From the IMG/VR virus record IMGVR_UViG_3300025316_001100: 64,000 nucleotides of DNA; one strand, given 5' to 3'. The notes beneath the pieces were generated by a model that saw only the letters and a list, made by a program, of their open reading frames with translations, was not told where the DNA came from and ran no database searches. Positions 42,927 to 59,877 of the stretch are shown here, piece by piece; the stretch's first letter is position 1; each line of letters starts with the position of its first letter. The DNA comes from a virus (Duplodnaviria > Heunggongvirae > Uroviricota > Caudoviricetes). Made by a program: the position numbers and the translations under genes.

Positions 42927-42977
42927 TTTTCACACCTTATAGTAAAAGCCCACCCGGCACACGCCGGGTGGGCTCTC

Positions 42978-42999
42978 TGTGTTATACACCCGGACTCAG
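42978..42999 (-). promoter_or_regulatory. conserved 20-bp element, copy 12 (minus: CTGAGTCCGGGTGTATAACACA)
   Basis: Lies 4 nt downstream of a GTAGTATAAT -10 box at 43004-43013 and upstream of the RuvB-like gene. Confidence 0.55.
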
Positions 43000-43008
43000 G
43001 GTATTATA

Positions 43009-44043
43009 CTACGCAGAAGCCCTTTTGGGACGTTGTGCTTCGTAAGTTTTCTGAATCTTGGCAATCGCACTGTTGAACGCCAACCGGGTGAATCGCCGGG
43101 AATACGGCTTACCAGTATTGGGATTGATGTTGGCAGCCGCCACTGCTGTTTGCCAACCTTTTTCCCAATGCTCACCAAGCAATTCCTTGTTCGGCTGTTG
43201 GAAAGCCATCAGTACAGCATTTTCAAACGGGGTAAGAACCGTTTCTCGAATCGCACGACGTTGATCGTGATCTAGCAATTCAGGCACCGGCCGCAACTCA
43301 TCGGAAAACAACGTCTCAAATACGGCTGAATCTCCATCCACTGCACTTCCTTCATGCTTGGATGACATGCTTGTGGCATGATACGTTTCGGTCAACGTAG
43401 CTTGCACAATCGCACATTCATTTTCGTTGAATCCCAAGTATGCCGTCACTTCATCAAAGGTGGCAGGCCGATTAAAATCAGCACGGCCCTCTTCGTAAAG
43501 CATATGCAATTTACGAGCCTCATTTGACCAGGGGGACAACGGATTGGCCTTATTGACCGCACCCGCCAACTTCCTACGAACGCAATGGTACAAATAGGTC
43601 ATAAAAGCAATGTTGGTATCGGTGTAATAGTACATCGCATTGATGGCACCGATGATGCCTTCATCGTAATAATCTTGAAACGACAAGATCATTTCGGGAT
43701 GAGCCGACGCATACCGATAAGCCAATTTTTCAATGCAACGGGTATAACCACATAGAATCTCCATACGAATATCGGTTACCGCCTGAATCTTTTCCAGGGA
43801 CTTGGCATCCAACTTAATACCACGAATAGAACTCACTACGCCCTTCTTCATGGCATCAACCAGTTCGTCACGAAAGTCCGCTCGGCTGTAAGACTTACGC
43901 TTGATGTCAGCAATTTCTACAACCTGATCGTACATCTGCTTTAGGGCCTTATTACCCCGACGCATAACCTTCGCCAACTGATCCTTCCGTTCCTTAGACA
44001 AGGGCATATACGGAAGGGTTTCGTGATCGGCTACAATTCGCAT
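43009..44043 (-). CDS. sigma-70 family RNA polymerase sigma factor-like protein (344 aa)
   Basis: Region 2-like FQDYYDEGIIGAINAMYYYTDTNIAFMTYLYHCVRRKLAGAV (compare DLIQEG.IGL.KAV.KFD...FSTYA.WWIRQ); region 4-like LDHDQRRAIRETVLTPFENAVLMAF ... FTRLAFNSAIAKIQK. Confidence 0.55.
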   Translation of the reverse strand: MRIVADHETLPYMPLSKERKDQLAKVMRRGNKALKQMYDQVVEIADIKRKSYSRADFRDELVDAMKKGVVSSIRGIKLDAKSLEKIQAVTDIRMEILCGYTRCIEKLAYRYASAHPEMILSFQDYYDEGIIGAINAMYYYTDTNIAFMTYLYHCVRRKLAGAVNKANPLSPWSNEARKLHMLYEEGRADFNRPATFDEVTAYLGFNENECAIVQATLTETYHATSMSSKHEGSAVDGDSAVFETLFSDELRPVPELLDHDQRRAIRETVLTPFENAVLMAFQQPNKELLGEHWEKGWQTAVAAANINPNTGKPYSRRFTRLAFNSAIAKIQKTYEAQRPKRASA

Positions 44044-44456: not shown

Positions 44457-44492
44457 TCTCTGTTGCCACAAGAATTCTTGTGGCAACAGAGA
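44457..44492. repeat. Perfect 36-bp palindrome TCTCTGTTGCCACAAG-AATT-CTTGTGGCAACAGAGA (contains GAATTC)
   Basis: 16-bp perfect stem with a 4-nt loop, between the terminator hairpin and the 20-bp element. Confidence 0.6.
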
Positions 44493-44523
44493 AATCAGCC
44501 CCCACGGCCGGGTGGCCGTGGGG
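44486..44523 (-). terminator. Rho-independent terminator (minus: CCCCCACGGCC-ACCC-GGCCGTGGGGG then CTGATTTCTCTG)
   Basis: Perfect GC stem directly after the 44540 gene end. Confidence 0.5.
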
Positions 44524-44539
44524 GCTATCATCCAGCGGT

Positions 44540-45004
44540 TTACTCAAACTGTTGGCACCAATACGGAGTGCCTTCTGGCGAAACGTAGCCAGCAATACCG
44601 ATTTTACGATAACCGGGATTGAGAATGTTGGCTCTATGACCAGACGAATTCATCCACTGGACCATTACACCATCTACAGTAGATGATCCCATTGCGATGT
44701 TTTCCGCACCATCGACTGAATGAACCATTTGTCGATTATTGGCCATCCAACCGCAATGGCGGCGAGCCCGCATATGCACAATGGGGTCCAAAATCAACGC
44801 TGCCAAACCGTATCGTTGCCGTTCGGCATTGACTTGATTAAGCAACTGGGTTTCAGTCGTATACACAGGGGCTTTGTCCACAACTGCGTTTTGAGACGCC
44901 GCCGTAGAACCCGTAGAGTTGCTATAACCCCTACGGCCCCGTGCATGAGCAACTGAACAAACACACAGACACAACACAGCACACACGATTGTTCTCAGCT
45001 TCAT
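44540..45004 (-). CDS. Secreted CAP/SCP (YkwD-like) domain protein with an N-terminal signal peptide (154 aa)
   Basis: MKLRTIVCAVLCLCVCSVAHA signal peptide; then LNQVNAERQRYGL..L......A..HC.WM......HS..GAENIA.....V..W..S.GHRANIL.P.Y...G.A......G.YW.Q.F matches the CAP pattern. Confidence 0.55.
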   Translation of the reverse strand: MKLRTIVCAVLCLCVCSVAHARGRRGYSNSTGSTAASQNAVVDKAPVYTTETQLLNQVNAERQRYGLAALILDPIVHMRARRHCGWMANNRQMVHSVDGAENIAMGSSTVDGVMVQWMNSSGHRANILNPGYRKIGIAGYVSPEGTPYWCQQFE

Positions 45005-45062
45005 TGGATTCTCCTTGTACTGAGACTATCAATAGATAACCAAACCATCCAAAAGGTTCGGT

Positions 45063-45272
45063 TCAAACGCTTGCTTTAGACAATTCTCGCCAACGGTCCA
45101 GGTGGGTAAACGCAGCGATGATAGTAAGAATATCATCCTTAGAACGAATTCCCCACAAGGCTGCTGCGCATTCACGATCAGCGACCGGCAGCTTATCAAT
45201 ACTTTCCAAGTATTCTTGGTAATTTTCAGCCGGATGCTGTTTTCGCCACTCGTACAGATGGTCACGAATCAT
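45063..45272 (-). CDS. hypothetical protein (about 70 aa, start at the internal Met MIRDHLYEW...)
   Basis: Trimmed from track ORF 45063..45353 to remove the overlap with 45262..45477. Confidence 0.35.
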   Translation of the reverse strand: MIRDHLYEWRKQHPAENYQEYLESIDKLPVADRECAAALWGIRSKDDILTIIAAFTHLDRWRELSKASV

Positions 45273-45477
45273 TTTCGTCCTCCAAATTTTCGAAACTGTT
45301 GTCGTTATCGTAAAAACGGTATTTCCTGCCCCTAAATGAAAACACCCGACCATTCAATTTACGTTGATACGTCATAGCTCCAACACTACCATCGATAACC
45401 AATCGAGCATAGATTTCTACAACGTCACTAGCAAGTCGTTTCACGCTAATGATTTGATGGGGTCTGGTAAATGGCAT
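45262..45477 (-). CDS. hypothetical protein (71 aa)
   Basis: ORF. Confidence 0.4.
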   Translation of the reverse strand: MPFTRPHQIISVKRLASDVVEIYARLVIDGSVGAMTYQRKLNGRVFSFRGRKYRFYDNDNSFENLEDENDS

Positions 45478-45806
45478 TAGATTACAATCATCTTATGATA
45501 AGCTGGATCGTTGGGATCATTAACTCGACGGAAATATTCTTCCGATTCAGTTAATTTACCTTCCAACCAATAACAGGGAACGGTAATAACGGCAAATAGG
45601 GTTCGGTTTTCAAATCGACCAACGACGTATTTACGACGAATGTTTACACCGTCAGCACCACAGGTTGCCCGCCAAGCCGTTGCAAGATTGACCGCTGCGT
45701 TCAAATCAAATTCAGCTTCAAGGACGAAGGCTTCAAATAAATGCCAATCTTCGGCCCGACCACCGGACGATTCAGAAACAACGTGAACAATATCTCGATA
45801 TTCCAT
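45477..45806 (-). CDS. hypothetical protein (109 aa)
   Basis: ORF; RBS GGAGGAATTTTTATG after element copy 15. Confidence 0.5.
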   Translation of the reverse strand: MEYRDIVHVVSESSGGRAEDWHLFEAFVLEAEFDLNAAVNLATAWRATCGADGVNIRRKYVVGRFENRTLFAVITVPCYWLEGKLTESEEYFRRVNDPNDPAYHKMIVI

Positions 45807-45825
45807 AAAAATTCCTCCGGGGCAG

Positions 45826-45844
45826 CTTATACACCCGCACTGGA
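45826..45844 (-). promoter_or_regulatory. conserved 20-bp element, variant copy 15 (minus: CCAGTGCGGGTGTATAAGC)
   Basis: Variant; precedes the RBS of 45477..45806 and lies directly downstream of the iteron block. Confidence 0.45.
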
Positions 45845-45882
45845 TGTATTAATCAAAGCGTATTTGACCTATATTCCCCAAC

Positions 45883-45953
45883 TTCATAGATTCTCGTAAA
45901 CCCATAGATTTTCCCAAACCCATAGATTTTCACAAACTCATAGATTCTGAATG
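45883..45953. repeat. Four tandem 18-bp direct repeats (iteron-like), core (C/A)NCATAGATT(T/C)T(C/G)NNAAA
   Basis: acttCATAGATTCTCgtaaa / cCCATAGATTTTCccaaa / cCCATAGATTTTCacaaa / ctCATAGATTCTGaatg, read directly from the sequence. Confidence 0.65.
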
Positions 45954-46151
45954 ATTGGGCAATGGTGAATCTTGTGCTCTTGGCATTGGCCAACATCGTG
46001 TATCCCAACCTGCTAGCCACCCAAGGCAATCGAATAGCCAATCTAAAAATACGCAAAGATATTGAAATAGATTTCGCAATAACAGACAGGGAAGTGTCGC
46101 TGCATACAAAATAATCAAAATTGGCACGGCAATCATTTGAATAATAATCAT
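45930..46151 (-). CDS. small membrane protein (73 aa)
   Basis: Hydrophobic ORF; its C-terminus overlaps the iteron block. Confidence 0.35.
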   Translation of the reverse strand: MIIIQMIAVPILIILYAATLPCLLLRNLFQYLCVFLDWLFDCLGWLAGWDTRCWPMPRAQDSPLPNHSESMSL

Positions 46152-46570
46152 TTTGTTATACCAACAGCCACTCTACCGGCTGGTTTGTCATCACTTGTTA
46201 CCTGATGAATACAGTAACCGCACTTGCGGCCCTTATATGTCCACGCCCCTACATTCAAAGCTCCCAATTTATCTTCAGATACAAAAAACCAACCAATATA
46301 TCTGTGTCGATGTTTCTCACGACATTCCAGCACAATGAAATTGCCAAGACAAGTTCCCACTGGAATATATTGCACCCCCACATGATCTGGAGACCAAATC
46401 TTGAGAGCATCCAGATATTCTTGCAACACATCACTCATATCATGAATCCAGATTTTCCCAATCTTTCTTGGAAGAATTTTCTGGGCTGCCGCCTTCTTGG
46501 CAAATTTCTTATGCATTTTTTTCACAAAATCATCGGCGGCTTGCAACGCTTCTTTTTCAAGTTTACTCAT
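46148..46570 (-). CDS. hypothetical protein (140 aa)
   Basis: ORF. Confidence 0.5.
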   Translation of the reverse strand: MSKLEKEALQAADDFVKKMHKKFAKKAAAQKILPRKIGKIWIHDMSDVLQEYLDALKIWSPDHVGVQYIPVGTCLGNFIVLECREKHRHRYIGWFFVSEDKLGALNVGAWTYKGRKCGYCIHQVTSDDKPAGRVAVGITK

Positions 46571-46863
46571 TATTCAGCCCGTACCTTTTCATAGATTTCA
46601 CGTTCTTCATCGTCTGCAAACTTAGTACGAATAATACCTGCTGTTTTTTCAAGTTGAAACATATGACGAGTTCGAATCGTTTCCGATTCATAATCCGTCC
46701 ACTCTGCATGGCAGGCCCTACAATTACGAACAGGCACCAAAACAAATGTCATGTCGCATTTGGGATAGAAAAACGGTTCACTTTCTTGTGTAGTGAATAC
46801 ATCTTCGCAACCGCAATTAGGACACGTAAAATCTATCCCACAGTGAGGACACAAATTACTCAT
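46570..46863 (-). CDS. Zn-ribbon protein (97 aa)
   Basis: CPHCG..CPNCGC ... CRAC motifs. Confidence 0.5.
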   Translation of the reverse strand: MSNLCPHCGIDFTCPNCGCEDVFTTQESEPFFYPKCDMTFVLVPVRNCRACHAEWTDYESETIRTRHMFQLEKTAGIIRTKFADDEEREIYEKVRAE

Positions 46864-46910
46864 TGTCGCCTTCCTGAAATTCCAACTGAAACCCTTAGAC
46901 TCAATAGGGT

Positions 46911-46939
46911 ATTGTACTACTAAACGACACTCTTGTAAA
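46911..46939 (-). promoter_or_regulatory. sigma70-type promoter TTTACA-N17-(GTAG)TACAAT (minus)
   Basis: Reverse complement gives TTTACAagagtgtcgtttagtagTACAAT. Confidence 0.5.
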
Positions 46940-46991
46940 GAGATCGACCAACACTACATATATGAAGATTCTTGGTAAAATACACAAGCTA

Positions 46992-47037
46992 GGATATATC
47001 CTACCGATATGCGGTCTGGGATATATCCTACCGATAT
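46992..47037 (+). promoter_or_regulatory. Two copies of the 19-bp operator-like repeat GGATATATCCTACCGATAT (each with the palindrome GGATATATCC), 27 bp apart, immediately upstream of the plus-strand gene 47050
   Basis: Exact direct repeat at 46992-47010 and 47019-47037; lies in a divergent promoter region. Confidence 0.55.
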
Positions 47038-47049
47038 AGAGAGGGAAAC

Positions 47050-47736
47050 ATGGAACGAGTTAGTGTAATCGAAGGAGATATCCCAGTGCTAATCGTGGCA
47101 CCTCATGGCTGCCAACAAGATGACTTCAACACTGCCTATATTGCCGAAACCGTTGCCACTGACCTTTCAGCCTATGCTGTTATTAATCGTGGATGGGAAA
47201 AATCTGATAAGGTAGATTGCTTTAAGGATAAAGCCAATTGCAATAATGTTCCACACTGTCATGAATATGTGGTAAAAGATGAATTCCTAATGCCCATTAT
47301 GCGATACGTTGTCCAAATTTCAAAATTCAGTCGCTTTACCTACATCTTTTATATTCATGGAATGAAAGATGATATTAAAAAGCAATTCCCTGATCTCCAA
47401 ATCATCATCGGTTGTGGTAAGGGTAAGTTTCAATCATTCCCCAGTTGTGATGAATGCCGTAAAGACGCCTTTGTTTCATTTTTAATTAACAAAGGTGTTA
47501 AAGCTTACGAAGGCGTTGATGGCCAATATGCTGGTAAAGATCCTAATAACATGAATCAATTATACCGAAAATGGTATCCTAATTCTGATGTTCATAGTAT
47601 GCAGTTAGAAATTGTGAGAAGTTGCCGCACACCAAAGTGTGCGGCAACTTCTATGGCTACCAACATTTCTAGAGCGATTAGTGATTTAGTAGCAATCAGC
47701 GATCATGGTTTTAGCCGAATTATTGTAAGTCCATAG
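47050..47736 (+). CDS. hypothetical protein (228 aa), plus strand; possible amidohydrolase-like fold
   Basis: Clean ORF with RBS AGAGAGGGAAAC; IVAPHGCQQDD and HG.KDD segments suggest a metal-dependent hydrolase, but this is unconfirmed. Confidence 0.5.
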   Translation: MERVSVIEGDIPVLIVAPHGCQQDDFNTAYIAETVATDLSAYAVINRGWEKSDKVDCFKDKANCNNVPHCHEYVVKDEFLMPIMRYVVQISKFSRFTYIFYIHGMKDDIKKQFPDLQIIIGCGKGKFQSFPSCDECRKDAFVSFLINKGVKAYEGVDGQYAGKDPNNMNQLYRKWYPNSDVHSMQLEIVRSCRTPKCAATSMATNISRAISDLVAISDHGFSRIIVSP

Positions 47737-48259
47737 GAACATTCCCAAGAATCTGCTTCTGTTCATCAGTTAAACGAATTCTAGTGGGAATTTTATCTAC
47801 AGACCAATTACTTTGAATATAAACCACTTCTGCATTAGGAGCAATTTGTTGCAAACTTGCAAAGTTGTTGTTGTTCAACACTCCCAAAACCCACACCCGA
47901 TGTTCTAGTTCTTTAGTTTTTGCCACGATCCCATTAACAGTGTTTGTTAACATTTCCGAACCTTGATCTGGTCTAAGATCTAACTTCACTGGTTGCTGTT
48001 CCATCGGAGCAGTATCCAGTTGCTCCATTTGTTGTACTTGCGACTCTGGCACTACATTTTTATTAGTATGATACTGTAACGCCAAATAAATAAACGCTCC
48101 TAATGCCACAATCGCTATCAATAGAAACATTGTAGCTAAAACTTCGTGAGCCACTTGTGGCTTAACAACAGCCGGAATCGGCTGAGGCGATGGCAACGGA
48201 GCCGGATCTGTTGCCGCCATCTGCCTCTTTAATTCTTCTACCCATTTTGATTTGGACAT
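47720..48259 (-). CDS. membrane-anchored protein (179 aa), one TM helix
   Basis: ORF; RBS GGAGGAATTATG; hydrophobic stretch LATMFLLIAIVALGAFIYLAL. Confidence 0.55.
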   Translation of the reverse strand: MSKSKWVEELKRQMAATDPAPLPSPQPIPAVVKPQVAHEVLATMFLLIAIVALGAFIYLALQYHTNKNVVPESQVQQMEQLDTAPMEQQPVKLDLRPDQGSEMLTNTVNGIVAKTKELEHRVWVLGVLNNNNFASLQQIAPNAEVVYIQSNWSVDKIPTRIRLTDEQKQILGNVPMDLQ

Positions 48260-48467
48260 AATTCCTCCAACGGTTATACTAATAGAATAGTTAAAATCTT
48301 AAAAATTATTTCACATAAAAAATGCAGAATATGTTACCTCCCTACAAAAACTCTACCACCCATTCGTTAAGAAATGTTTTGTTGTTAAAACAAAAAATCC
48401 CAAACAGCCCGATGAATATTTTAGCAGCCTACGATTTTTCTCCAATGCATGCCCAATCTTTACAGAA

Positions 48468-49001
48468 ATGCGAAAAAAATGGTACAAAGAACCTTTTGTT
48501 CGCAGAAGCAAAAAAATAGTCCCATCTGATTTAATTTTAACATGGAGAATCGCTGCATTGTGGGCCTGCGATGATGGTACTAATAATCATAAAATACGCA
48601 CGTTTAGATTGTCCACTAATTGTTTTTCTGAAACTGATGTTTGTTTTCTCATTACTAGATTAGATAATGACCTTGGTGTAAAAGCACGCATGAATATGGA
48701 ACGTAATCAACCAACAATTACCATGTGCGGAGCAAATGCTGAAAAATTTATAGATGGCATCAAACGCTACATACCGTGGTCTTGCCTGCAATACAAATTA
48801 AAGTGGCGTCCGAGTCTTAACCCAAACACTTCTGGCATTATTGGCGTAAGTAAGGTTGGTAGATATTGGCAAGCTCATATTATGATAAATGGAATTAAAA
48901 AATTCCAACACTTTAATACAAAAGAAGAAGCAATTCTAATACGAAAGGAATGGGAAAATGATAAATTATTGGTTAGAGAAAGACAAAGCAGAACAAGCTA
49001 A
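48468..49001 (+). CDS. Putative homing endonuclease with a LAGLIDADG-like motif and a C-terminal AP2 DNA-binding domain (177 aa)
   Basis: IAALWACDDGTNN (LAGLIDADG-like); C-terminal GIIGVSKVGRYWQAHIMINGIKKFQHFNTKEEAILIRKEWE matches the phage AP2 domain pattern; plus strand against a minus-strand background. Confidence 0.45.
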   Translation: MRKKWYKEPFVRRSKKIVPSDLILTWRIAALWACDDGTNNHKIRTFRLSTNCFSETDVCFLITRLDNDLGVKARMNMERNQPTITMCGANAEKFIDGIKRYIPWSCLQYKLKWRPSLNPNTSGIIGVSKVGRYWQAHIMINGIKKFQHFNTKEEAILIRKEWENDKLLVRERQSRTS

Positions 49002-49227
49002 AGCAGTCCACTCATTTACAATCACCACAGGTGCAAACCACTATTGTGGGTGTGGAAATGTAACCTATACTTGCGGTGTGGGAACATATCATTGTGGCAA
49101 TATTATAATGAATGTACTTCCTTCTTGCGTGCCTTGTGGAAGCGGTTCAGTTTATTGTGGCAACGTGCCTGTTTATGGCAATTGTAGCTTTACATATTCT
49201 GAAAACGTTTGTAGCATTACCTGTTAA
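48958..49227 (+). CDS. small Cys/Gly-rich protein (89 aa)
   Basis: ORF followed by a bidirectional terminator; repeated CG(N/S)V motifs; uncertain. Confidence 0.3.
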   Translation: MINYWLEKDKAEQAKAVHSFTITTGANHYCGCGNVTYTCGVGTYHCGNIIMNVLPSCVPCGSGSVYCGNVPVYGNCSFTYSENVCSITC

Positions 49228-49237
49228 TTAAATAAAC

Positions 49238-49270
49238 AAACCCACCCGGCCAAAGGCCGGGTGGGTTTTA
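49238..49270. terminator. Bidirectional Rho-independent terminator (ACCCACCCGGCC-AAA-GGCCGGGTGGGT, T-runs on both sides)
   Basis: Perfect GC stem between the converging plus gene (end 49227) and minus gene (end 49297). Confidence 0.6.
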
Positions 49271-49296
49271 ACGATCAATGGTGGAGCATTGATCAA

Positions 49297-50178
49297 TTAG
49301 TTTGCAGGAACACCAACGGTTTCCTTTTTGACTTCGGTCGGACCAAGAGCCTTTTCGACCGGAACAAAAGTAATTTGTCCAACTTCACCGTTGCTATTGC
49401 CAAGAGCAGATTGAGAAATGCCCGCCAGTCGGTCAAACTCATTACTCGCATTAGTATCTAATGCATACTTGAGGAATTCATCTTCCGATTGCTTTGCCTC
49501 GACACCGGCCAATTTCTGGCTGATCTTAGCTTCAGAAGTAATACGCCGACGCATATCCTGCAATCGTTGAAGTGTTTCGCCACTGCGACTTTGACTGATA
49601 CCAGAAATGATATCATTCGCTTCCTTTTCTTGCTTGGCGATTTCAACATCGGCTACAGTTGCGTCCTTCTGTTCTTTGATTTTGCCGAGTTCACGAATCA
49701 TGCCTTGCATGGTCACTTCGTAACCCGTCAACTGTTTGGCCGATTCTTCCAACTCATCGTGAAGACGAGAAGCTTCTGTCTTCTTGCTGCTCAAGGTTGA
49801 AGTGGCATCTTTGAAACCCCCAGAGCAACGCAAATAATCTGCATCCACCTGAATTTCTGCATCGCTCTTACCTTGAGACTTTAGCAATTGTGCTCGCTTT
49901 TGTCCCATTGCCAAAGCACCGGCCATAATCTTTTCCTGCTTGGCAACATCCTGGTCTAGTTCCGCAAGACGATCTTGCTTCTTCAACTGAACAGACATAA
50001 TGCCAGCTACCGCTCGTTTTACTTCTTGGATACGAGTGCGATGTTCGGTTTCCACAGCATCAAACTGTGCCCGAATCGCTGTCGGACTGGACTCCCAAAC
50101 TTGAGACCAGTAATCGAAATTTCCGGTCAGAGTGTAGAGAATCGCACGAATCAATCTACCAAACGCCTTAAACATCAC
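49297..50178 (-). CDS. PspA/IM30 (Vipp1)-like coiled-coil protein (293 aa)
   Basis: The N-terminus MMFKAFGRLIRAILYTLTGNFDYWSQVWESSPTAIRAQFDAVETEHRTRIQEVKRAVAG parallels the PspA N-terminus ([40 protein letters not shown]...). The remainder is long heptad coiled-coil. Confidence 0.4.
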   Translation of the reverse strand: MMFKAFGRLIRAILYTLTGNFDYWSQVWESSPTAIRAQFDAVETEHRTRIQEVKRAVAGIMSVQLKKQDRLAELDQDVAKQEKIMAGALAMGQKRAQLLKSQGKSDAEIQVDADYLRCSGGFKDATSTLSSKKTEASRLHDELEESAKQLTGYEVTMQGMIRELGKIKEQKDATVADVEIAKQEKEANDIISGISQSRSGETLQRLQDMRRRITSEAKISQKLAGVEAKQSEDEFLKYALDTNASNEFDRLAGISQSALGNSNGEVGQITFVPVEKALGPTEVKKETVGVPAN

Positions 50179-50202
50179 TCAACTCCTTCTACTTGGTTAA
50201 AC

Positions 50203-51159
50203 CTATTGAGAACCTAAAACTCTATCACACTTTACAGAACTTGTCAATCCTTGATAAAGAGTGAAAAACGCTCCATTGAAAGGAAAATCAAAACACTCAC
50301 CTTCTTGTTTTATTGGAAATAATACCGTACCTCTCTTAATGCAAGCCACCGGCACCAATTCCTTGCTAATACTGTCATAGACAGACATGCCCACCAAAGC
50401 ACCGCCAGGAGTTTTCAAAACATGCAAATCACAATTTGCAATTAACCCCTCAATTTTCACTGCTGAATGTTCTATTCTCGGCACTTCCAATTCTTTTCTG
50501 CGATTGACGATTAAATTCGTTAATGCTCGCTTGCCAATTTTATCTTTATTGGCATCAAACAATTGTCGCAATTCTCTAATTGCATCCAAAGACAAATTAC
50601 ATGATGCTTTTAGATTATTGCAAATTGCACACATGCTCTGATAATTTGAGAATTCATTTCTGCCGCCTATTGATGCTGGACAGATATGATCCTTAGTCAT
50701 CAGCACCAATTCTCCATTTTCTTCTGCATACAGATTGAAATGTGGAGCTTTATCATTTGGGTGCATCTCCAATAGCATTTTTGTTCCTTCAATGCCACAG
50801 GCTGCACAATTACGATTGGCGTGAAAGACAAAGTAACGGTGCGAATTCATTCGTACTAAATATTGTTTCTTACCAGCCGCATATTCTTTTTTTGTATCTG
50901 TGTGGGTAATGAAAGGCAACACTTCTTCTGGAGTAAACTCGCCCAAAACAAGCCTATATGTTTTTTGTTTCCGCTGAGCAATTTGTGAAATTCTAGTTAA
51001 AGTGAATGGCGGAACAAGAATGTTGCCTAGCTGCTCGGCAGCCAACTTCATTAAATCTTGTCCTGCTCCCTCTATCTCAAAATCCCACTCGACGATTGCT
51101 CTCGCCTTATATCGTTTCGTCATGATTGCATTAAGTGTATCAAAAATCCTAAACCCCAC
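50203..51159 (-). CDS. HNH endonuclease-domain protein (318 aa)
   Basis: CAACGIEG....DHICPASIGGRNEFSNYQSMCAICNNLK is an HNH motif. Confidence 0.5.
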   Translation of the reverse strand: MGFRIFDTLNAIMTKRYKARAIVEWDFEIEGAGQDLMKLAAEQLGNILVPPFTLTRISQIAQRKQKTYRLVLGEFTPEEVLPFITHTDTKKEYAAGKKQYLVRMNSHRYFVFHANRNCAACGIEGTKMLLEMHPNDKAPHFNLYAEENGELVLMTKDHICPASIGGRNEFSNYQSMCAICNNLKASCNLSLDAIRELRQLFDANKDKIGKRALTNLIVNRRKELEVPRIEHSAVKIEGLIANCDLHVLKTPGGALVGMSVYDSISKELVPVACIKRGTVLFPIKQEGECFDFPFNGAFFTLYQGLTSSVKCDRVLGSQ

Positions 51160-51530
51160 AACAACAATGGACGCAGAAATAAATTGCCCAGTAATATACC
51201 GCCCCTATAGGCTCTTTTGTTTATATCCTGAGAATCATTTCCTTCTGCAAATCGCTCGAACGTACTACCGAACAATCCTGCAATAACCACTAATCCAATT
51301 GCTACAGTTAAATGAGGCGTAGCGACACCAAACGCTGGAGTAACAAACCACATCCACAATTTTCTTAGCACAAATCCTTTTAACACATAAGCCAAAGCAA
51401 ACACTACCGCTACAAAACATCCCTGCTGTAGTATACTTCCATAATTTGCTTTTACTATTTCGGATACTGGCTGATCCTTACATATTGGGTCCATACATAC
51501 CGCCTTTTTGATATAAGAGTGATGTAACAC
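51120..51530 (-). CDS. integral membrane protein (136 aa, 3-4 TM helices)
   Basis: Hydrophobic ORF. Confidence 0.5.
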   Translation of the reverse strand: MLHHSYIKKAVCMDPICKDQPVSEIVKANYGSILQQGCFVAVVFALAYVLKGFVLRKLWMWFVTPAFGVATPHLTVAIGLVVIAGLFGSTFERFAEGNDSQDINKRAYRGGILLGNLFLRPLLLWGLGFLIHLMQS

Positions 51531-51568
51531 TGATTATATCATAGACGGTAATAATAGCCAAGTAAAAA

Positions 51569-52192
51569 TTACTGTACCATTTTCCACGGTGGCATAAATG
51601 GATAATCAAAAAATCTACCAGTCTCCTGATCAATTGAATTGCGAACATCACGAATGGGACAACCGGGTGGAAAACCCTTTACCGGCCATTCATTCAAAAA
51701 TCCATTAAATGTCACAAGCCAATATTTGCCTCGGAAAAATGCGAATTGATTTGTATAATTCTTCTGCCACCAGGGGTCCACAATATAGCAAGAAGTAGAC
51801 ATAAGCCGTACCCTTTCACCCCAAGGTTGCTCATGACCACTCTCCACTAAAAATCGATAACTGTCCCCCTCTGTGTCGTGACGGAAGGCATCGTGAACAC
51901 CGAAAATAGTAGACCAATCATCACACACATAAAACAATTCGTAGGAGTCATATTCAACTCCTCCCAATTTATTCAACAATACTTTAGCATGAGGATTACG
52001 TGGTCTGCCCGTTTCATCCAACGGGATCGGCACCTCTCGCAATTTGTTTCTTGGATAAGCGATTTCAATATCTAATCGCCATTTTCCTTCAGGACAGGGA
52101 TAGTCCGCACATCGCTCTGCTCTCCATCGTTCCCAATTCTGGTAATGAAGATACATTTTCCCATCCGGTCCTATTGTCTCGAATGGTTGCAT
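51569..52192 (-). CDS. hypothetical protein (207 aa)
   Basis: ORF. Confidence 0.5.
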   Translation of the reverse strand: MQPFETIGPDGKMYLHYQNWERWRAERCADYPCPEGKWRLDIEIAYPRNKLREVPIPLDETGRPRNPHAKVLLNKLGGVEYDSYELFYVCDDWSTIFGVHDAFRHDTEGDSYRFLVESGHEQPWGERVRLMSTSCYIVDPWWQKNYTNQFAFFRGKYWLVTFNGFLNEWPVKGFPPGCPIRDVRNSIDQETGRFFDYPFMPPWKMVQ

Positions 52193-52201
52193 GTTAGGGC
52201 C

Positions 52202-52330
52202 TCATTTATCTTTACGTTTCCACCAACTTGAAATCAATTTGTCCCACACAAAACTCACCGTTGCTCCTAAAATAGCCAGTGTTACTGTTGTAATGACACT
52301 AGCCGTAGTAAGAAAATTACGTTTTTTCAT
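52202..52330 (-). CDS. small membrane protein (42 aa, MKKRNFLTTASVITTVTLAILGATVSFVWDKLISSWWKRKDK), not in the track
   Basis: RBS GGAGCAATTATG; one TM helix. Confidence 0.4.
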   Translation of the reverse strand: MKKRNFLTTASVITTVTLAILGATVSFVWDKLISSWWKRKDK

Positions 52331-52463
52331 AATTGCTCCAAGAAGTTAAAGGCAGCCGCCCGGCCGTGAATGCGATTACTCGCAGGGCCAAGCTGAGTCG
52401 GCGGTTCACCCCCGCACACATTCACAGGGAATTGATTTCACGACCGGACAGTTGCCTCTTTAT

Positions 52464-54068
52464 TTACTTCCCAGACTGCACATTTATCACAGGGGTAATC
52501 CCCTTGAGATCCGTCCAAAGAGTACCAGGGCCAGAATAAATCATCTTCAAATCAATGTCATCTGGCAATCCTGTAGCAAATTGCCACTGCGTATAAGCCG
52601 ATGGATCACCAAAAGCCTTAACGGCCAATTCAAACAACTGTGCCTTGGCTTCCTGCTGCAACCGTTTGGAAGCGTTCTCGGCCTCACCGATAGCGACCAC
52701 CTTTTGAGCTTCGATATCGGCCACCTTCCTATCAACAGCAGCAATCATCTTCTCCGTTTCAGCGGCCGTAGTATCAGCAGTCTTTTGGCCTTCGGCATTG
52801 ACATTGGCAACCAATTTCTTGGTGCCTTCCGTAATTTTTGCCGCTTCCAATTTAACAGTCTGTTCGGCAGCACGCAACTTCATTTCAGTCTTGGCTGTAG
52901 TCGCTTCCTGGGTACGTGTCAAAGCCAATTCGTCGGCAATGTAGCCCTTTTGAATAGGTTCTCGCACGTCCTTCGGAATGTAAATGTGACGCACTAAACC
53001 GTACAATAAACTAATGTTCTTTTCTTTCAACACTTTATTGAAAGATTTATCAACATCCTCTTGGAATTTTTGTCGGCTATCACCCACAAGCAATTCCACG
53101 GCTCCCAATCTCGATCCATTGTTACGACAAATAGATTCGCATTGAGGAATAATCACTTTGCTTTCCACAGCGGCCAAATTACCAAAACGACTGATAATGT
53201 CTGGGCACTGATCAGGCAGCACTCCCCACACAGCACTGAAGTCCATTTGAATCTTGAATCCATCGCTCGAAGGGAATGTAATGCCTGTATTCACTACTGG
53301 CATACATTCTCCGCTGGCGTCAACTAGAACTTGATTCTGCTGGTTGACTTGCTTCTCGGTCGAAATCTCTTTGGCATTATAACCAATAGAAACAATATCG
53401 ATTTGCATCTCACGGGGATTGATCGGATAAAGGCCAGGAGGCAATGTATCCTTTTGAATTCCCGCTTTACGACCAAGAGCAGTGTTGTCTGTCAAATACG
53501 TGACCACGCCAACATAACCAGGGTTTATATGCACCCAACCAGCGTGCTTCATTTGTGGTATTTGTTGAGAGCCAACATTCGTCTCTTCAGTTCTAACGAC
53601 CTTTACTTCGTAACCATACGGATTGATACGATACCGTCCAGGTCCGAATGTACGTCGCAAAATACCCTTTTGTGTAGTGGCCCCAAGATCACCATCAACC
53701 AAAAATTGACCACTAGGCAAATCGTTGCCCAATTTACTGGTAACAATGGCCAATTCACCGGGCTTCACCACAACGTCGTCAACCACTGTTCGTTCCCACC
53801 AAACGGGACAATAAAAATGACGACCAGGGCCGGGCATGTCACACTTTACACCAATCTCACCCTCTTTGGCAAAATTGCCAGCAGCAGCATACTTGTTGCC
53901 CAACGTAAAAAACAACGGTCCCTTATACCGCAACATAAGACTTTGACCGGGTTCAACGTAAACTCGATTAACAGTCCAGTCGAAGAAAAAGTAAGAGCAG
54001 AACAGGGCAATTACGCCCAGGCCCACACTAGCAAGCAAACAACCCTTGGTTTCATCTCTCAAACTCAT
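52464..54068 (-). CDS. SPFH/band-7 (flotillin/HflKC-like) membrane protein, paralog B (534 aa)
   Basis: N-terminal TM helix; internal PG-YPINP repeats; C-terminal Ala/Glu/Gln-rich coiled-coil (AETEKMIAAVDRKVADIEAQKVVAIGEAENASKRLQQEAKAQ). Paralogous to 54084..55628. Confidence 0.5.
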   Translation of the reverse strand: MSLRDETKGCLLASVGLGVIALFCSYFFFDWTVNRVYVEPGQSLMLRYKGPLFFTLGNKYAAAGNFAKEGEIGVKCDMPGPGRHFYCPVWWERTVVDDVVVKPGELAIVTSKLGNDLPSGQFLVDGDLGATTQKGILRRTFGPGRYRINPYGYEVKVVRTEETNVGSQQIPQMKHAGWVHINPGYVGVVTYLTDNTALGRKAGIQKDTLPPGLYPINPREMQIDIVSIGYNAKEISTEKQVNQQNQVLVDASGECMPVVNTGITFPSSDGFKIQMDFSAVWGVLPDQCPDIISRFGNLAAVESKVIIPQCESICRNNGSRLGAVELLVGDSRQKFQEDVDKSFNKVLKEKNISLLYGLVRHIYIPKDVREPIQKGYIADELALTRTQEATTAKTEMKLRAAEQTVKLEAAKITEGTKKLVANVNAEGQKTADTTAAETEKMIAAVDRKVADIEAQKVVAIGEAENASKRLQQEAKAQLFELAVKAFGDPSAYTQWQFATGLPDDIDLKMIYSGPGTLWTDLKGITPVINVQSGK

Positions 54069-54083
54069 GATTAGGTTCCTTTC

Positions 54084-55628
54084 TTAATTCTTAGAGGGTG
54101 TAATAGGAGTGTTCGCCGCTGGAGTCGTAGTCCATTGACGTTTGGAATCAAACGTCCTGAATACATCCATGAGCGGACTATCCTGTGTATTGACCATCAT
54201 GCCCTTAAAGGCTGGGGCCAACTTCTTGTAAAGCGTCCAACGAGCAAATTCATTACCGTTATTTCCAAACGCCGCAATAGATCGCTTCCAACCAGCAGCC
54301 TCGGCTTCATTAGCAAACATAACAACGTCTGCCTTGGCTTTGCCAGTGGCCATAATGGCTGCCGCTTGATCTTTAGCTGCAAGCAATTGTTGCTCGGCAA
54401 CAGCCAATCGTTTTTGGGCTTCAATTACAGCCACTTCCTGCCGTTGCAAAGCTTGTGTAGTTACAGCAACCACAGCTTGGTCAGCAGCAACTTTAGCTTG
54501 CTTCTGCAACACCGTCGCCTTTTGTACGGCCAAATCCTGCTCCGAAGCTTGCTGCGCAATCTCTTTTGTAAATTGCGATTCTTGCTGTAAAGCGATTTGT
54601 CGTCTACGAACCGGATCAGCAATTTGTTCCGGTGGCCGAATGGTTGTAATCAATGCCTGGATCACTTCGATGCCTTGTGCGCCGCAAGTAACCTTCATTG
54701 CCGTTTGAAAATCTTCTTGGAACGTCACACGGGTATCCCCAGTAATAAATTCTTTACCAGAATGGTTTGATCCCTTGAGACGAGTATAAGCACGTGCATT
54801 GGGTAGAATAACTTTGGCAATTACCTCTTCATCCAATGCCTTACCACTACGCTCTTCATTGAAAAGAATGTAGGTAGTCGGTGCAGTCTCGGGCTTCACC
54901 CTAAATTCAATAATACCCTCAAGACTGACCCAAAAACCATCTCTAGTCGGGAAGCCAATATCTTGCAAATTGTATCGTTGACTTCGACAATCAATCAAAC
55001 GAGTTTCTTGCACATACGGATTCAAATAATATGTGCCCGGCTCCAAACAATCAGCTTGTACTCCACGACAATCCTTGGGCGACAAAATTTGATTGGCTTT
55101 TTCAGGCATCGTTGCGGCCAAATTGGTAAGCAACCCCTTATACCCAGCAGGAATACTTACGGGATCATGCAATTCAATCATTTCTGCATAATCATTTCTG
55201 ACAGGCGTAGTGCCTTGAATAAAACCATTGATTGGATATCGTCCAGGTCGCAATACTTCAGGAACAATACCCTTTTGCGTTTCTTTCCATGCAATCAATT
55301 CACCGGCTGCAAGGTCTTCGCCATAAATACGAATGCGAACACCCAACTTGCCTTCGGGAATTTCAACCTGCGGCACCACTTCAGAATCCCAAACATAAGG
55401 ATTGTAGTAATACCGACCTTCAGTAAGTACATCCTTCTGAACACCCTTATAATCTTGAGTGGGGGCAATAATCATGCCCGGCTCCAGATCATTGCCAGTC
55501 TTTTTCATCAGAATGGCCATGTGCTTGGCAGGCACGTCAATCCGCATCTCGGAATACATCCACCAAGGCGTAATCACAACAAACGCTACAAGAATCGCAA
55601 TCCAAATCCAAATCTTTGAGGAGTCCAT
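54084..55628 (-). CDS. SPFH/band-7 (flotillin/HflKC-like) membrane protein, paralog A (514 aa)
   Basis: N-terminal TM helix; SPFH-like core (FPTRDGFWVSLEGIIEFRV...); flotillin-like AQ/AEA coiled-coil (KQAKVAADQAVVAVTTQALQRQEVAVIEAQKRLAVAEQQLLAAKDQAAAI...ANEAEAAGW). Confidence 0.5.
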   Translation of the reverse strand: MDSSKIWIWIAILVAFVVITPWWMYSEMRIDVPAKHMAILMKKTGNDLEPGMIIAPTQDYKGVQKDVLTEGRYYYNPYVWDSEVVPQVEIPEGKLGVRIRIYGEDLAAGELIAWKETQKGIVPEVLRPGRYPINGFIQGTTPVRNDYAEMIELHDPVSIPAGYKGLLTNLAATMPEKANQILSPKDCRGVQADCLEPGTYYLNPYVQETRLIDCRSQRYNLQDIGFPTRDGFWVSLEGIIEFRVKPETAPTTYILFNEERSGKALDEEVIAKVILPNARAYTRLKGSNHSGKEFITGDTRVTFQEDFQTAMKVTCGAQGIEVIQALITTIRPPEQIADPVRRRQIALQQESQFTKEIAQQASEQDLAVQKATVLQKQAKVAADQAVVAVTTQALQRQEVAVIEAQKRLAVAEQQLLAAKDQAAAIMATGKAKADVVMFANEAEAAGWKRSIAAFGNNGNEFARWTLYKKLAPAFKGMMVNTQDSPLMDVFRTFDSKRQWTTTPAANTPITPSKN

Positions 55629-55646
55629 ACAAATTCCTTTCTTGAG

Positions 55647-55937
55647 TTAGTGGGACTCTGGCTGGTCCTGAATTTTCGGCACATTGACATAATCAAGCAC
55701 CGGTTTCTCACAGGCTTCCAGCATTTTTTGAAGAATATCCTTTGTCACATCCAGGCTTTCACCTACAACCGCTTGTGCATGCAAAGAATAACTTTGCACA
55801 TTTTCTTCGGCATCATAATAAACTTCATGAATGCCGAACCATGTTTCATCCTGCCCGCCAACATTCGGCACCCAATCTGGGTTCCGGTCAACGTGCTTCA
55901 TTACTCGATAATTCCAATGCATATGGTACTCTCCCAT
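55647..55937 (-). CDS. hypothetical protein (96 aa)
   Basis: ORF. Confidence 0.45.
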   Translation of the reverse strand: MGEYHMHWNYRVMKHVDRNPDWVPNVGGQDETWFGIHEVYYDAEENVQSYSLHAQAVVGESLDVTKDILQKMLEACEKPVLDYVNVPKIQDQPESH

Positions 55938-55957
55938 ATTAAACCTCTTTCAGCACT

Positions 55958-55987
55958 AATTGTACTACGGTGAACACCGCTTGTAAA
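55958..55987 (-). promoter_or_regulatory. sigma70-type promoter TTTACA-N18-(GTAG)TACAAT (minus)
   Basis: Reverse complement gives TTTACAagcggtgttcaccgtagTACAAT. Confidence 0.45.
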
Positions 55988-55988
55988 A

Positions 55989-56243
55989 CTAGATTTTTTT
56001 ACGATTTTCAAACTTCTCCAATAGTGCTTGCACACGATCAATAAGAAGATCTGGTGTCCCAAAGTCGGGGTGATGACAAAAATGATTAAGAACGTGATCT
56101 ACGGATAGCAACACTTCCATGACCTCGTTTGCCAATTCACCGTTCACACAAGATTCACCAGTACGCAATAATGCGACTTTCTGATACGGACCTTCCATAA
56201 TACGCTCCTTGGGGTAAGCTAGAGAGCATATCAGGTTTCCCAT
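55989..56243 (-). CDS. hypothetical protein (84 aa)
   Basis: ORF. Confidence 0.45.
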   Translation of the reverse strand: MGNLICSLAYPKERIMEGPYQKVALLRTGESCVNGELANEVMEVLLSVDHVLNHFCHHPDFGTPDLLIDRVQALLEKFENRKKI

Positions 56244-56255
56244 CCCAAGTCAATA

Positions 56256-57200
56256 TCACTTGAAAAACTCGGCCTGATCGACAAACTGCATGCTAGCCCG
56301 GAGTGCGCCCGTCTTGTCTGTCGTGGAATCCCCCACGAAAATGCACTCGCTAGGTTGTAATTTCCAATTCCTGATGTGGTGAATGAAAAGTCCAGACTGC
56401 GGCTTACGACAATAGCAAGTCATTGGTGGAATCCGATGAGGACAAAACAGAGTGTCGATTTCCACGCCCAACAATTTACAAGTATGGGCAAACATCGCTT
56501 CTGCTTCGGCATGGGTAAATTCATTTTTGGCAATAGCCGATTGATTCGACGCACCAAGCAAGTGATAACCTTTCTTCTTCCATGCTTTGAGAACAGCCGT
56601 TCGATTAGGAAGAATTTCAATCTCGTCCTTGGCAACCGGATATACCTTTGCTCCCTTTGATTTACGAAGCGTGTCATCAAAGTCAAGAATAATTGCCTTA
56701 TTGACAAAATCCTTAGGATATGGACGACGCTCGAAATGATGTTTCTCAATTCGTGCGAATCCTTCTGTCGTCGTCGGTTTTTGAAATTCTTTACGATACT
56801 TGAAAAGCACAGCCACAGGAAACATATTGGGATCGTCTTTTACGGCTTTCAAATCATCCTGCGTGAAGAAGATTTCGCCATAACGATCCCACATGCGATT
56901 CAACGCATTGATCTGTGCGTCTTCAATGCTGGTGTCCATTAATTTACAAACAACAACGGCCTTCCTCTTCGTGGCTTGCTCAATAAATGGCTTACGGCTT
57001 TCAACGGTGGGAAATGTATTGTCAAGGACTACATTCTTGCCATCAGATAAAGCAGCCACCATCTGCGGCACAAGATCGATAACCTTACCGCCTGTAATGT
57101 CTCGACTAAGATGTATATGACCTTGTTTCTTGTAATCCTCGGTAACTGTCGATTTGCCAGAGGCCGGGCATCCACAAATAAGAACAACTTCTTGGGTCAT
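56256..57200 (-). CDS. Polynucleotide 5'-kinase / 3'-phosphatase (T4 PseT/Pnkp-like, 314 aa)
   Basis: N-terminal P-loop LICGCPASGKST (kinase); C-terminal HAD phosphatase motifs ILDFDDTL (DxDxT) and FVGDSTTD. Confidence 0.8.
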   Translation of the reverse strand: MTQEVVLICGCPASGKSTVTEDYKKQGHIHLSRDITGGKVIDLVPQMVAALSDGKNVVLDNTFPTVESRKPFIEQATKRKAVVVCKLMDTSIEDAQINALNRMWDRYGEIFFTQDDLKAVKDDPNMFPVAVLFKYRKEFQKPTTTEGFARIEKHHFERRPYPKDFVNKAIILDFDDTLRKSKGAKVYPVAKDEIEILPNRTAVLKAWKKKGYHLLGASNQSAIAKNEFTHAEAEAMFAHTCKLLGVEIDTLFCPHRIPPMTCYCRKPQSGLFIHHIRNWKLQPSECIFVGDSTTDKTGALRASMQFVDQAEFFK

Positions 57201-57213
57201 AATGATCTTTCTT

Positions 57214-58347
57214 TTAACCAGGAATGTAAGCAGTCTGCATGGTCAATATATTGCCAGGACTGTCTTTGGCGTTAAGTAAATAAGACGTAGGATCAAGCAA
57301 ATAATCCCATTTGGGAGCATCTAATTTCCAAGAATGAGAAGCCGATGTTCTTTCCCGTTCGTACAACTCCACATGGAGCATCGCACGGGAATGGCCGGGA
57401 ACGTCGGGACGTTCCCGGCCTTCTTTCACAACTGGTGTTACCGTGCCAATAAAATCACCAGCCCGCACAATATCGCCGGGTTTCCATTTTTCATAAACTT
57501 GGATTTCGCCATAACACACAATTCCACTGGGGCCTTCGACTAAAACGCAATCCGTATCGTTCCACCAAGGCGAATTATCCTGCGGTCCTGTAAACATTTC
57601 CTTGCCAACCACTCGGCCATCTTCCACCGCTTGTACAAAAGTGCCTTGGGCACAATAAAGATCCACACCAGTATGATGGGAGTGTTTACGTGCAAATCCA
57701 AAAGCCCCTGGATGATAACCACAAGGAATGCCTGGGCAGTTGGTCAATGGAAATCTCCATCGCAAACAATCTTTTGTTTGCTGTACGATGTCACTAATGT
57801 TGGCCATCGCACCATTACCTTCATCGTTGCAAGCCAGCATCTTAGTTTGTGGATCGACTCGTTTCCAACCCATGCCAAACAAAGTACGCATATTTTTTTG
57901 CGTAATCTCGTTTTGAAGCATCATGGTATTCATAGCCGGTGCATAAATGATCGGCCGTGTATAATCCCATGCTGCAACCGTGCTAGTTAAAATATTATCC
58001 GCCAATCCATTGGAAACCATACCCAACGTATTGTATGTGATTGGTGCAATGACCAATACCCCTGCCCATTTTCTTAGACCGATGTGAACTACCGGATCAC
58101 CCTTCTTCTGCCAAACCTTCGTGCCATGCGGCGTAGTCCATTCATTAAAATCAGTGAATACTTGAATATCTTTGTGCCCAGCAATATATGCCTGTGCATT
58201 TTCGTCGTGAAAGATGTCATTTTCAAAAAAATAACGACCCTTGTCGGTAGTGACAACTCTTACGTTGCCAAGCTCCCGAAGGGTAACCGCTAATTTTTTA
58301 GTAAGTGTCGCTGCAACACTACCGGTAACACCAAGTAAAATATTCAT
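57214..58347 (-). CDS. HFCD-family flavoprotein (phosphopantothenoylcysteine decarboxylase CoaC-like) fused to a C-terminal degenerate M23/LytM peptidase-like domain (377 aa)
   Basis: N-terminus MNILLGVTGSVAA..., VLVIAPITYNTLGMVSNGLADNILTS..PAMNTMM...ACNDEGNGAM (CoaC/Dfp N-domain pattern). C-terminus HHTGVDLY..GTFVQAVEDGRVV...GDFIG..AMLHVELYE...DPTSYLL (M23 fold, HxH degenerated to MLH). Confidence 0.65.
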   Translation of the reverse strand: MNILLGVTGSVAATLTKKLAVTLRELGNVRVVTTDKGRYFFENDIFHDENAQAYIAGHKDIQVFTDFNEWTTPHGTKVWQKKGDPVVHIGLRKWAGVLVIAPITYNTLGMVSNGLADNILTSTVAAWDYTRPIIYAPAMNTMMLQNEITQKNMRTLFGMGWKRVDPQTKMLACNDEGNGAMANISDIVQQTKDCLRWRFPLTNCPGIPCGYHPGAFGFARKHSHHTGVDLYCAQGTFVQAVEDGRVVGKEMFTGPQDNSPWWNDTDCVLVEGPSGIVCYGEIQVYEKWKPGDIVRAGDFIGTVTPVVKEGRERPDVPGHSRAMLHVELYERERTSASHSWKLDAPKWDYLLDPTSYLLNAKDSPGNILTMQTAYIPG

Positions 58348-58614
58348 GATCTACTCATTCTTTCCCCATGTGCCCACCGAGACATACACTGATTAACTCG
58401 CCAAGCACCACACCACGGTCGATGCCAATGAGATTCACGGGTATTACTAAAACAAATAGTCCACGGGTAAATGACCATCATTTTTTTGTTCTCGTTTCTT
58501 GTTTCCACCTGGACATATAACTGCCAAATCGCCAACAACCGGGCCATCTGCGATGCCAAAAAGCTTCACGTCCATTACAAGCGAATGATAGTGTGACAGG
58601 CCATGCTTTGCGAA

Positions 58615-59400: not shown

Positions 59401-59621
59401 TGTTGGCTCTCCGTTCTACCTCGACCAAAAGCTTGACACATGGGTGATCTTGATGATATAGATCGCCTATGAATTACATCAATTCCAATTACTTTAGAAG
59501 AATAATATGACGCATCTGAACAACCGCCTATAATGATCCATCTTCTATAAGTTTTCATGAAATCATCAGCCCAGCCAAATGAATAACCGGTAATGAATCC
59601 ACGATTTACTGAAAAAATCAC
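59397..59621 (-). CDS. hypothetical protein (74 aa)
   Basis: ORF preceded by a copy of the 37-bp direct repeat. Confidence 0.35.
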   Translation of the reverse strand: MIFSVNRGFITGYSFGWADDFMKTYRRWIIIGGCSDASYYSSKVIGIDVIHRRSISSRSPMCQAFGRGRTESQQ

Positions 59622-59864: not shown

Positions 59865-59877
59865 TTAGACCTCTTGC

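Follow-up and report, generated by a model that had tools for sequence, protein, structure and literature searches.

A lineage-specific array of four abutting 18-bp repeats, possibly protein-binding, beside a putative phage-specific promoter in an uncultured freshwater phage

A 64,000-nt stretch of DNA from an uncultured freshwater phage (IMG/VR record IMGVR_UViG_3300025316_001100; here called the window) contains four tandem 18-bp repeats in an intergenic spacer, which raises the question of what these repeats do, if anything. A sequence-only reading of the locus had compared them to the iterons of a replication origin or to a binding array for a phage regulator, and had placed them at the boundary between two genomic modules.

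The four repeats are indeed present, with unit starts on the + strand at 45885, 45903, 45921 and 45939 and the sequences, in order, CATAGATTCTCGTAAACC, CATAGATTTTCCCAAACC, CATAGATTTTCACAAACT and CATAGATTCTGAATGATT (Table 1). TRF called 45885–45948 with a period of 18, 3.6 copies, 86% matches and a score of 86, the highest in the window (runner-up, 58). As a control, 200 dinucleotide-preserving shuffles of the window were generated and the best TRF score was taken from each, giving a mean of 46 and a maximum of 71; because none of the 200 reached 86, the repeat is real and non-random. A core of 8–10 bp, CATAGATT(Y)T, is invariant in all four units and is separated by variable 8-bp spacers. The invariant columns are 1–8, 10 and 16, and variation occurs only within columns 9 and 11–18. 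The fourth unit shares just the 10-bp core (its first 10 bp) with the others. By our own count the core-versus-spacer pattern is borderline (P ~0.02–0.05, corrected for register choice and with unit 4 included), and the core-conservation statistic is not significant once the spacer of unit 4 is counted as flank. The units diverge from each other by ~14%, those at the edges are more degenerate than the central ones and dyad symmetry within the unit is weak (10/14). On the promoter side, a further degenerate stretch may be a fifth unit, a weak candidate from our own alignment that is not significant alone. The spacing had also been described as helically phased, which is wrong: 18 bp corresponds to ~1.7 helical turns, so the units are out of helical phase.

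Table 1. Features in and around the repeat array, in window coordinates.
Feature	Coordinates	Strand	Description and basis
Tandem array	45885–45956	none	Four head-to-tail 18-bp units; TRF and shuffles
Possible decayed fifth unit, ACCTATATTCCCCAACTT	45867–45884		Promoter side of the array; ~10/18 matches, one gap, core mutated
P15, element copy 15, CCAGTGCGGGTGTATAAG	45826–45843 (core 45827–45841)	−	First copy in the direction of transcription
Sigma-70-like promoter, TTTACA-N13-GTAGTACAAT	46911–46939	−	Drives p97 and p140
Shine–Dalgarno sequence GGAGG	45814–45818	−	7 nt before the p109 ATG (45806)
p140	46148–46570	−	Gene upstream of the spacer; in the variable cassette
p73 ORF	45930–46151	−	73 aa; called by gene callers in several assemblies; codon usage not coding-like
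p109	45477–45806	−	First gene after P15; no known domain; coding score 0.42
p71	45262–45477	−	Small, basic; no known domain
p69	45063–45272	−	Small; no known domain; helical by our own reading
p154, CAP/SCP-domain protein	44540–45004	−	Pfam PF00188, E = 9.8e-12; last gene of the unit
Intrinsic-terminator-like hairpin	44496–44527	−	14 pairs, 11 of them G–C, then a T-rich tail; closes the P15 unit

Arrays of this kind are rare. The window has just this one and no full-length dispersed copy of the 18-bp unit elsewhere. In 109 kb of related or promoter-sharing DNA (TRF score ≥ 50), the few other arrays were shorter or weaker, save two ~60–74-bp duplications that carry the promoter element described below; the sole three-copy, 17-bp array in those 109 kb is operator-like. 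A scan of IMG/VR for CATAGATT three times at 18-bp spacing returned 18 loci, all of them unrelated coding or low-complexity repeats and mostly from giant-virus bins, and a stricter two-unit pattern had zero matches in JGI metagenome contigs and zero in GTDB genomes. When the array region was compared by blastn with phage and plasmid records, only chance matches were obtained (E ≥ 2). All contigs spanning the array (at least seven samples, two strains) have it in identical form with four copies, and since its units differ by ~14% yet their number is constant across contigs, it is not a fresh or unstable slippage product. At the RNA level, the fold z-score was −0.37 and the array had no Rfam match. 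No terminator, sigma-70 promoter or stable RNA structure that could point to a different role was present inside the array.

The core heptamer ATAGATT also occurs on the + strand at 45409, 46067 and 46591, all within 700 bp of the array. With these, 4% of the window contains three of the seven non-array + strand copies, a weak indication from a count made post hoc; the three lie inside p71, the p73 ORF and the 3′ end of p97, and those in p71 and p97 come from E-I-Y codons. Derivation of the unit from the 3′ end of p97 (EIYEKV; AAAATTTATGAAAAAGTTTGGG in relatives) was considered and rejected, as blastn-short gave E = 25 among many chance matches and tblastn also found nothing.

Nearly all genes of the window are on the minus strand. 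Read in that sense, the order is the sigma-70-like promoter at 46939, p97, p140, a 341-bp spacer (45807–46147) that holds the array, the promoter copy P15, p109, p71, p69, the CAP gene and a terminator. P15 thus heads a self-contained moron-like unit, consisting of p109, p71, p69 and the CAP protein p154, that is ended by a strong terminator. The p154 protein is apparently secreted, as we read an N-terminal signal peptide in its sequence. Nearly all proteins of the window are without a Pfam or PHROGs family; p97 has zinc-ribbon matches below threshold, and no DNA-binding domain was detected in the cassette proteins with Pfam, PHROGs or PDB. AF2 models of p140 (pLDDT 43) and p109 (pLDDT 47), each built from a three-sequence alignment, were unusable.

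P15 belongs to a repeated 20-bp element, T(G/C)AGTCCNGGTGTATAA(G/C)A in the minus sense, of which 15 copies occur between 5995 and 45843, all on one strand. Copies with an adjacent gene start lie ~8–35 nt before the ATG, usually after a Shine–Dalgarno sequence, and this position and strand suggest that the element is a phage-specific promoter. P15 is the poorest match to the consensus, scoring 17.9 bits with a leave-one-out PWM versus 25.3–33.2 bits for the other 14 copies. The array ends ~41 bp upstream of P15 in the minus sense, with its cores at roughly −65 to −125 from the inferred P15 start, and no copy of the element with two or fewer mismatches occurs from 45842 to 64000. The array therefore does lie, as had been stated, directly upstream of element copy 15 and just before the region from which the element disappears.

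A candidate partner of the element is encoded in the window. The 344-aa protein at 43009–44043 is sigma-70-like (PHROG sigma family, 3e-6; PDB sigma-H region 2, 1.9e-6), and its homologues match Pfam Sigma70_r2. The element is present where this sigma is at least 54% identical (L037, L040, L041 and a second strain) and absent where it is just 25–29% identical (LR756511 and L043). In 596 Gb of GTDB bacterial and archaeal genomes the motif is essentially absent, with three single matches, and a literature search on the promoter motif and LR756511 found nothing relevant. The array also has minus-strand sigma-70-like promoters of the form TTTACA-N12/13-GTAGTATAAT on either side. Because no terminator lies between the promoter at 46939 and the array, read-through across the array is likely.

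Two further observations concern these promoters. In 26 kb of the 131-kb contig IMGVR_UViG_3300022555_003222 (L034–L036), AGTCCNGGTGTATAA occurs more than 50 times with two or fewer mismatches, apparently before most genes; this contig has no detectable protein homology to the window, and no sigma homologue was found in it. As a putative promoter, the element is very strongly conserved and common to apparently unrelated phages. Between the sigma and clamp-loader genes (42945–43012), a sigma-70-type −10 (GTAGTATAAT) is directly followed by a copy of the phage promoter, and a strong hairpin with a T-run (GCCCACCCGGCGTGTGCCGGGTGGGCTTTT) starts ~9 nt after that element, so that the segment consists of tandem promoters leading straight into a terminator-like or leader hairpin.

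The distribution of the array was assessed among strains and relatives. The window sequence was found at 100% identity in several ENA, JGI and Logan metagenome assemblies, alongside a second strain that differs by ~0.6% of bases around the array and by up to 2.4% over longer stretches. Six contigs of the second strain carry the array unchanged. This identity is uninformative, since all six belong to one lineage and equally long stretches without SNPs between the strains (475–557 bp) are found elsewhere. Likewise, four assembly contigs (L020, L021 and two ENA contigs) end in or beside the array, which is uninformative because contigs were chosen for a whole p140 or p109, forcing ends in the spacer. 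The two strains also differ by a gene at 48468–49001 (+) that matches LAGLIDADG_2 (Pfam) and an HNH homing-endonuclease family (PHROGs); it is cleanly missing from the second strain (L027–L030; 48282–48957), a presence/absence polymorphism.

GenBank contributes a single relative, the 595-kb uncultured phage LR756511.1, whose clamp loader is 45% and sigma-like protein 25% identical. IMG/VR yielded no match to p109, p140 or the clamp loader as protein queries, nor to the sigma alignment, which in metagenome contigs gave the second strain alone. Among the relatives that were recovered, L025 is the sole one to keep the homologous junction: the 3′ end of p97 and a p140 homologue (63% identity) are followed, after a spacer of ~265 bp, by a well-matching copy of the promoter element. 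The L025 spacer cannot be aligned with that of the window and has no tandem repeat. L037 has p293, p179, p228, p97, p100, the sigma gene (67%) and the clamp-loader gene (76%) in the same order as the window. Between its p97 and p100 are a 42-aa ORF and a 297-aa ParB_N-domain protein (Pfam, 3.9e-7), the first phage-specific promoter comes just after this insert, and TRF found no array.

Comparison of the window (44490–46570) with L037 (4220–5260) and L025 identifies the p97–p100 interval as a swappable cassette slot, which in the window is filled by p140, the spacer with the array, P15, p109, p71, p69 and the CAP gene. The array belongs to a swappable accessory cassette. The module boundary proposed by the sequence-only reading is real and is kept in L037; because L037 keeps it without the array, the early-to-middle boundary is conserved and the array forms no part of this boundary. 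The repeats, whose conservation in relatives had been named as a check, are absent from every related phage recovered beyond the second strain, namely L025, L037, L040, L041, L043 and LR756511.

Taking these data together, we favor, with a probability of roughly 0.4, the reading of the array as four abutting protein-binding sites peculiar to this lineage, an operator or activator acting in cis on P15. The repeat is far beyond chance, all of its invariant columns except one are in positions 1–10, as expected of recognition cores with spacers, and the cores lie within ~150 bp of a promoter. That promoter copy scores 17.9 bits versus 25–33 bits for the others; activator-dependent promoters typically have poor core elements. 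Moreover, three tandem GGATAYAT copies with a period of ~17 abut a promoter copy in L035, on the IMG/VR contig with the same promoter class, which indicates that short arrays upstream of this promoter type recur. Against protein binding count the absence from all six relatives, the lack of a DNA-binding domain in any neighbouring protein by Pfam, PHROGs and PDB, the weak dyad of the unit and the apparent decay of the fifth unit in its core. The regulator-binding array proposed earlier is plausible and unproven: the core is conserved, the spacers vary and the array lies beside the weakest promoter copy, but no cognate DNA-binding protein was identified.

If proteins bind the array, a dimeric or cooperative DNA-binding protein, phage- or host-encoded, would recognize the core AATCTATG (minus sense) in each unit. 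With one unit directly following another every 18 bp (~1.7 turns), bound proteins would be expected to spiral round the helix as a short filament, with successive ones ~257° apart and no same-face contacts. Such a filament could recruit or stabilize RNA polymerase at the poor P15 (activation) or, alternatively, could repress or insulate by blocking read-through transcription that starts at the sigma-70-type promoter at 46939. In this lineage the array would most likely have arisen by slipped-strand duplication and then been kept. A more specific scheme, which we consider rather doubtful, is that the array is a recently evolved enhancer-like operator for a cassette protein of unrecognized fold (p69, p71, p109 or p140) that activates P15. 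The accessory moron unit with its secreted CAP protein would then be conditionally expressed, and regulator and sites would co-travel in a swappable cassette at the conserved p97–p100 recombination slot.

Reiterated operators of known regulators offer a comparison. MetJ met-boxes, the omega heptads of pSM19035 and Arc/Mnt-type operators are abutting 7–8-bp repeats that overlap the promoter; in such operators one dimer binds per repeat, neighbours make cooperative contacts and helical phase is not needed. The array is also abutting and near a promoter, but its units are 18 bp long and lie 41–130 bp upstream. We would class it as a further example of tandem direct repeats placed upstream of a promoter, one whose sequence is new.

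Nearly as likely as the binding array is that the repeats are a functionless minisatellite, that is, an 18-bp segment duplicated by slippage in a fast-evolving non-coding spacer and not yet lost. Such an origin fits the fact that no relative has them, not even at the homologous junction of L025, whose spacer resembles that of the window in the promoter alone, and it fits the dispensability of the cassette, which in L037 is replaced by a ParB_N gene. More degenerate edge units are what decaying arrays show, and the searches turned up neither a binding protein nor a full-length dispersed copy or a partner feature; identity between strains carries no weight here, given the SNP-free stretches of 475–557 bp elsewhere. 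What speaks for function instead is that substitutions avoid the 8–10-bp core and that a unit divergence of 14% implies long persistence in a compact genome with a copy number constant across samples. The rarity of comparable arrays (one in the 64-kb window) and the operator-like nature of the one three-copy, 17-bp array in the related and promoter-sharing DNA argue in the same direction.

The iteron reading, in which an initiator would bind the four repeats of a phage replication origin and melt adjacent DNA, fared much worse and is improbable. It draws on the four direct repeats of iteron-like length (18 bp, within the 17–22 bp range) with a conserved core, a clamp-loader gene 3 kb downstream and a 40-bp stretch of 25% GC ~80 bp away that is among the lowest 1.3% of windows. 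In addition, some phage origins, such as those of T7 and T4, are associated with promoters. The sequence-based tests, however, went against it, among them the two that the earlier reading had set as refuting conditions, the lack of a skew inflection and the absence of the repeats from relatives. Cumulative GC skew, which had been proposed as a check, declines monotonically over the 64 kb with no inflection near 45.9 kb. DnaA-box-like sites number 21, as many as the 21 expected by chance, and the array has none in its vicinity. The repeats are not bordered by an AT tract, since the 100-bp flanks have 34–48% GC versus a window mean of ~44%, and the 25% GC stretch is unexceptional where the window minimum is 12.5%. 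No recognizable initiator-like gene holds or adjoins the array, and no Rep, O or DnaA-like domain was found in the neighbours by Pfam, PHROGs and PDB, a search limited by the neighbours being 'dark' proteins for which the AF2 models of p140 and p109 failed. Relatives that keep the sigma and clamp-loader genes are without the array, and the array region resembles no phage or plasmid record (blastn, E ≥ 2). Plasmid iterons usually have a spacing of roughly two turns, unlike units that abut at 18 bp.

The nearest known counterparts among origins are the lambda-type ori iterons (four O-binding repeats; six in Stx phages), which resemble the array in being direct repeats of ~18–19 bp, four in number, with a conserved core, an A-tract per unit and a phage host. 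In lambda the iterons are embedded in gene O, which encodes the initiator, beside an AT-rich tract, and lambdoid phages conserve them (PMC7466680). Unlike them, the array has no recognizable initiator gene, adjacent AT tract, skew signal or conservation in relatives. It shows no sign of being an origin and is at most a local regulatory site.

Also improbable is a centromere-like (parC-type) or packaging-recognition site coated by a small adaptor, with autoregulation as a by-product. The array forms a continuous repeat block directly upstream of an operon promoter, and type II parC is likewise an unbroken run of tandem repeats that immediately precedes the promoter of its own target operon (PMC5016525). 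The parC sites bound by ParR (continuous in pSK41, split in R1) are similar in having few tandem repeats upstream of the operon promoter, and their abutting units imply a helical protein coat, as do those of the array. The ParB_N protein in the alternative cassette of L037 hints that the slot hosts DNA-handling accessories. Unlike parC, however, the array is followed by no actin-like motor or RHH adaptor; no ParM, ParA or TubZ-type NTPase, RHH adaptor or terminase was found in the unit or the window, and L037 has ParB_N yet no repeat array. The phage looks lytic, with one-directional transcription and no obvious need for partition, and nothing suggests a plasmid-like lifestyle.

Whether the repeats are part of a gene was judged from codon usage. 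The p73 ORF overlaps, with its final codons and TGA stop, the 1.5 repeat units farthest from the promoter. It scores −0.06 per codon, whereas 73-codon chunks of confident genes average 0.36 and never fall below 0.03. The ORF has no homologue in L025, PHROGs or Pfam and is probably a false gene call; its product is hydrophobic by our own reading. The ORF at 45853–46056 (ORF67) exists and holds the peptide that had been quoted for it, but with a score of 0.00 it is not coding-like, in line with the earlier statement that it is merely a translation of the repeats. Neighbouring genes all score 0.22–0.42, no frame in 45850–46151 has a coding-like codon signal and the spacer is probably non-coding. 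A coding repeat or remnant is thus the least likely reading, whether as hexapeptides at the C terminus of p73 (ESMSL*/KSMGLG/KSMGLR/ESMKLG in its frame) that would require read-through of the TGA or as part of ORF 45853–46056: the period is divisible by 3, the frame of p73 is open for 24 codons past its TGA and gene callers report p73 in several assemblies, but both ORFs score below all neighbours, p73 lacks homologues, unit differences are mostly non-synonymous in its frame (as we read them) and other window genes are intact under the standard code.

A better-conserved repeat occurs at another promoter of this phage. The perfect palindrome GGATATATCC is found twice, at 46992–47001 and 47019–47028, with a 27-bp spacing, between the divergent genes p228 and p97 and ~60 nt upstream of the sigma-70-like promoter at 46939. 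In L037, GGATACATCC occurs twice (3769–3778 and 3796–3805) with the 27-bp spacing kept, and the GGATAYATCC motif recurs near promoters of the IMG/VR contig, including three tandem copies at L035 1308–1356. This motif looks like the true conserved operator of the phage group. Both it and the array are short repeats by promoters, but GGATAYATCC is a perfect palindrome that is kept across relatives, whereas the CATAGATT array is non-palindromic and confined to one lineage.

The main value of the analysis so far is negative, in that the array is most probably not an origin and is not a conserved feature of the early-to-middle boundary. The conserved signals of the group lie elsewhere, in the phage-specific promoter, the sigma-70-like promoters and the GGATAYATCC pair, which are better targets than the array. 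Should the array bind a protein, it would point to a paired regulator and operator in a lineage of phages with hardly any annotated proteins, and would provide a handle on how a moron-like unit is wired into transcription driven by a phage sigma factor.

Several other features of the window were recorded. In the region free of the promoter element, two adjacent large SPFH/Band-7 proteins (534 and 514 aa) and a flavoprotein–M23 peptidase fusion are encoded on the minus strand (52464–55628 and 57214–58347), an unusual accessory content for a phage. A 407-aa TnpB/IS605-OrfB-like transposase (20670–21893, minus strand; phrog_506, 2e-107) sits in a stretch of 38% GC within a low-GC island at ~20–23 kb, and at a different position L037 has an OrfB_IS605-type gene whose product is distantly similar (24% identity across part of its length). 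A 37-bp repeat, ATAGATTTTACGAACGAGGTCRTGTGGCGTGATTTTT in the minus sense, occurs at 59613–59649 and 59879–59915 with 97% identity and as a weaker copy at 50170–50206; it has ATAGATTTT in common with the array, in the opposite orientation. Of the two close copies, one starts at a stop codon and the other overlaps the 3′ end of an ORF, and the repeat may be a 3′-end or terminator-like element.
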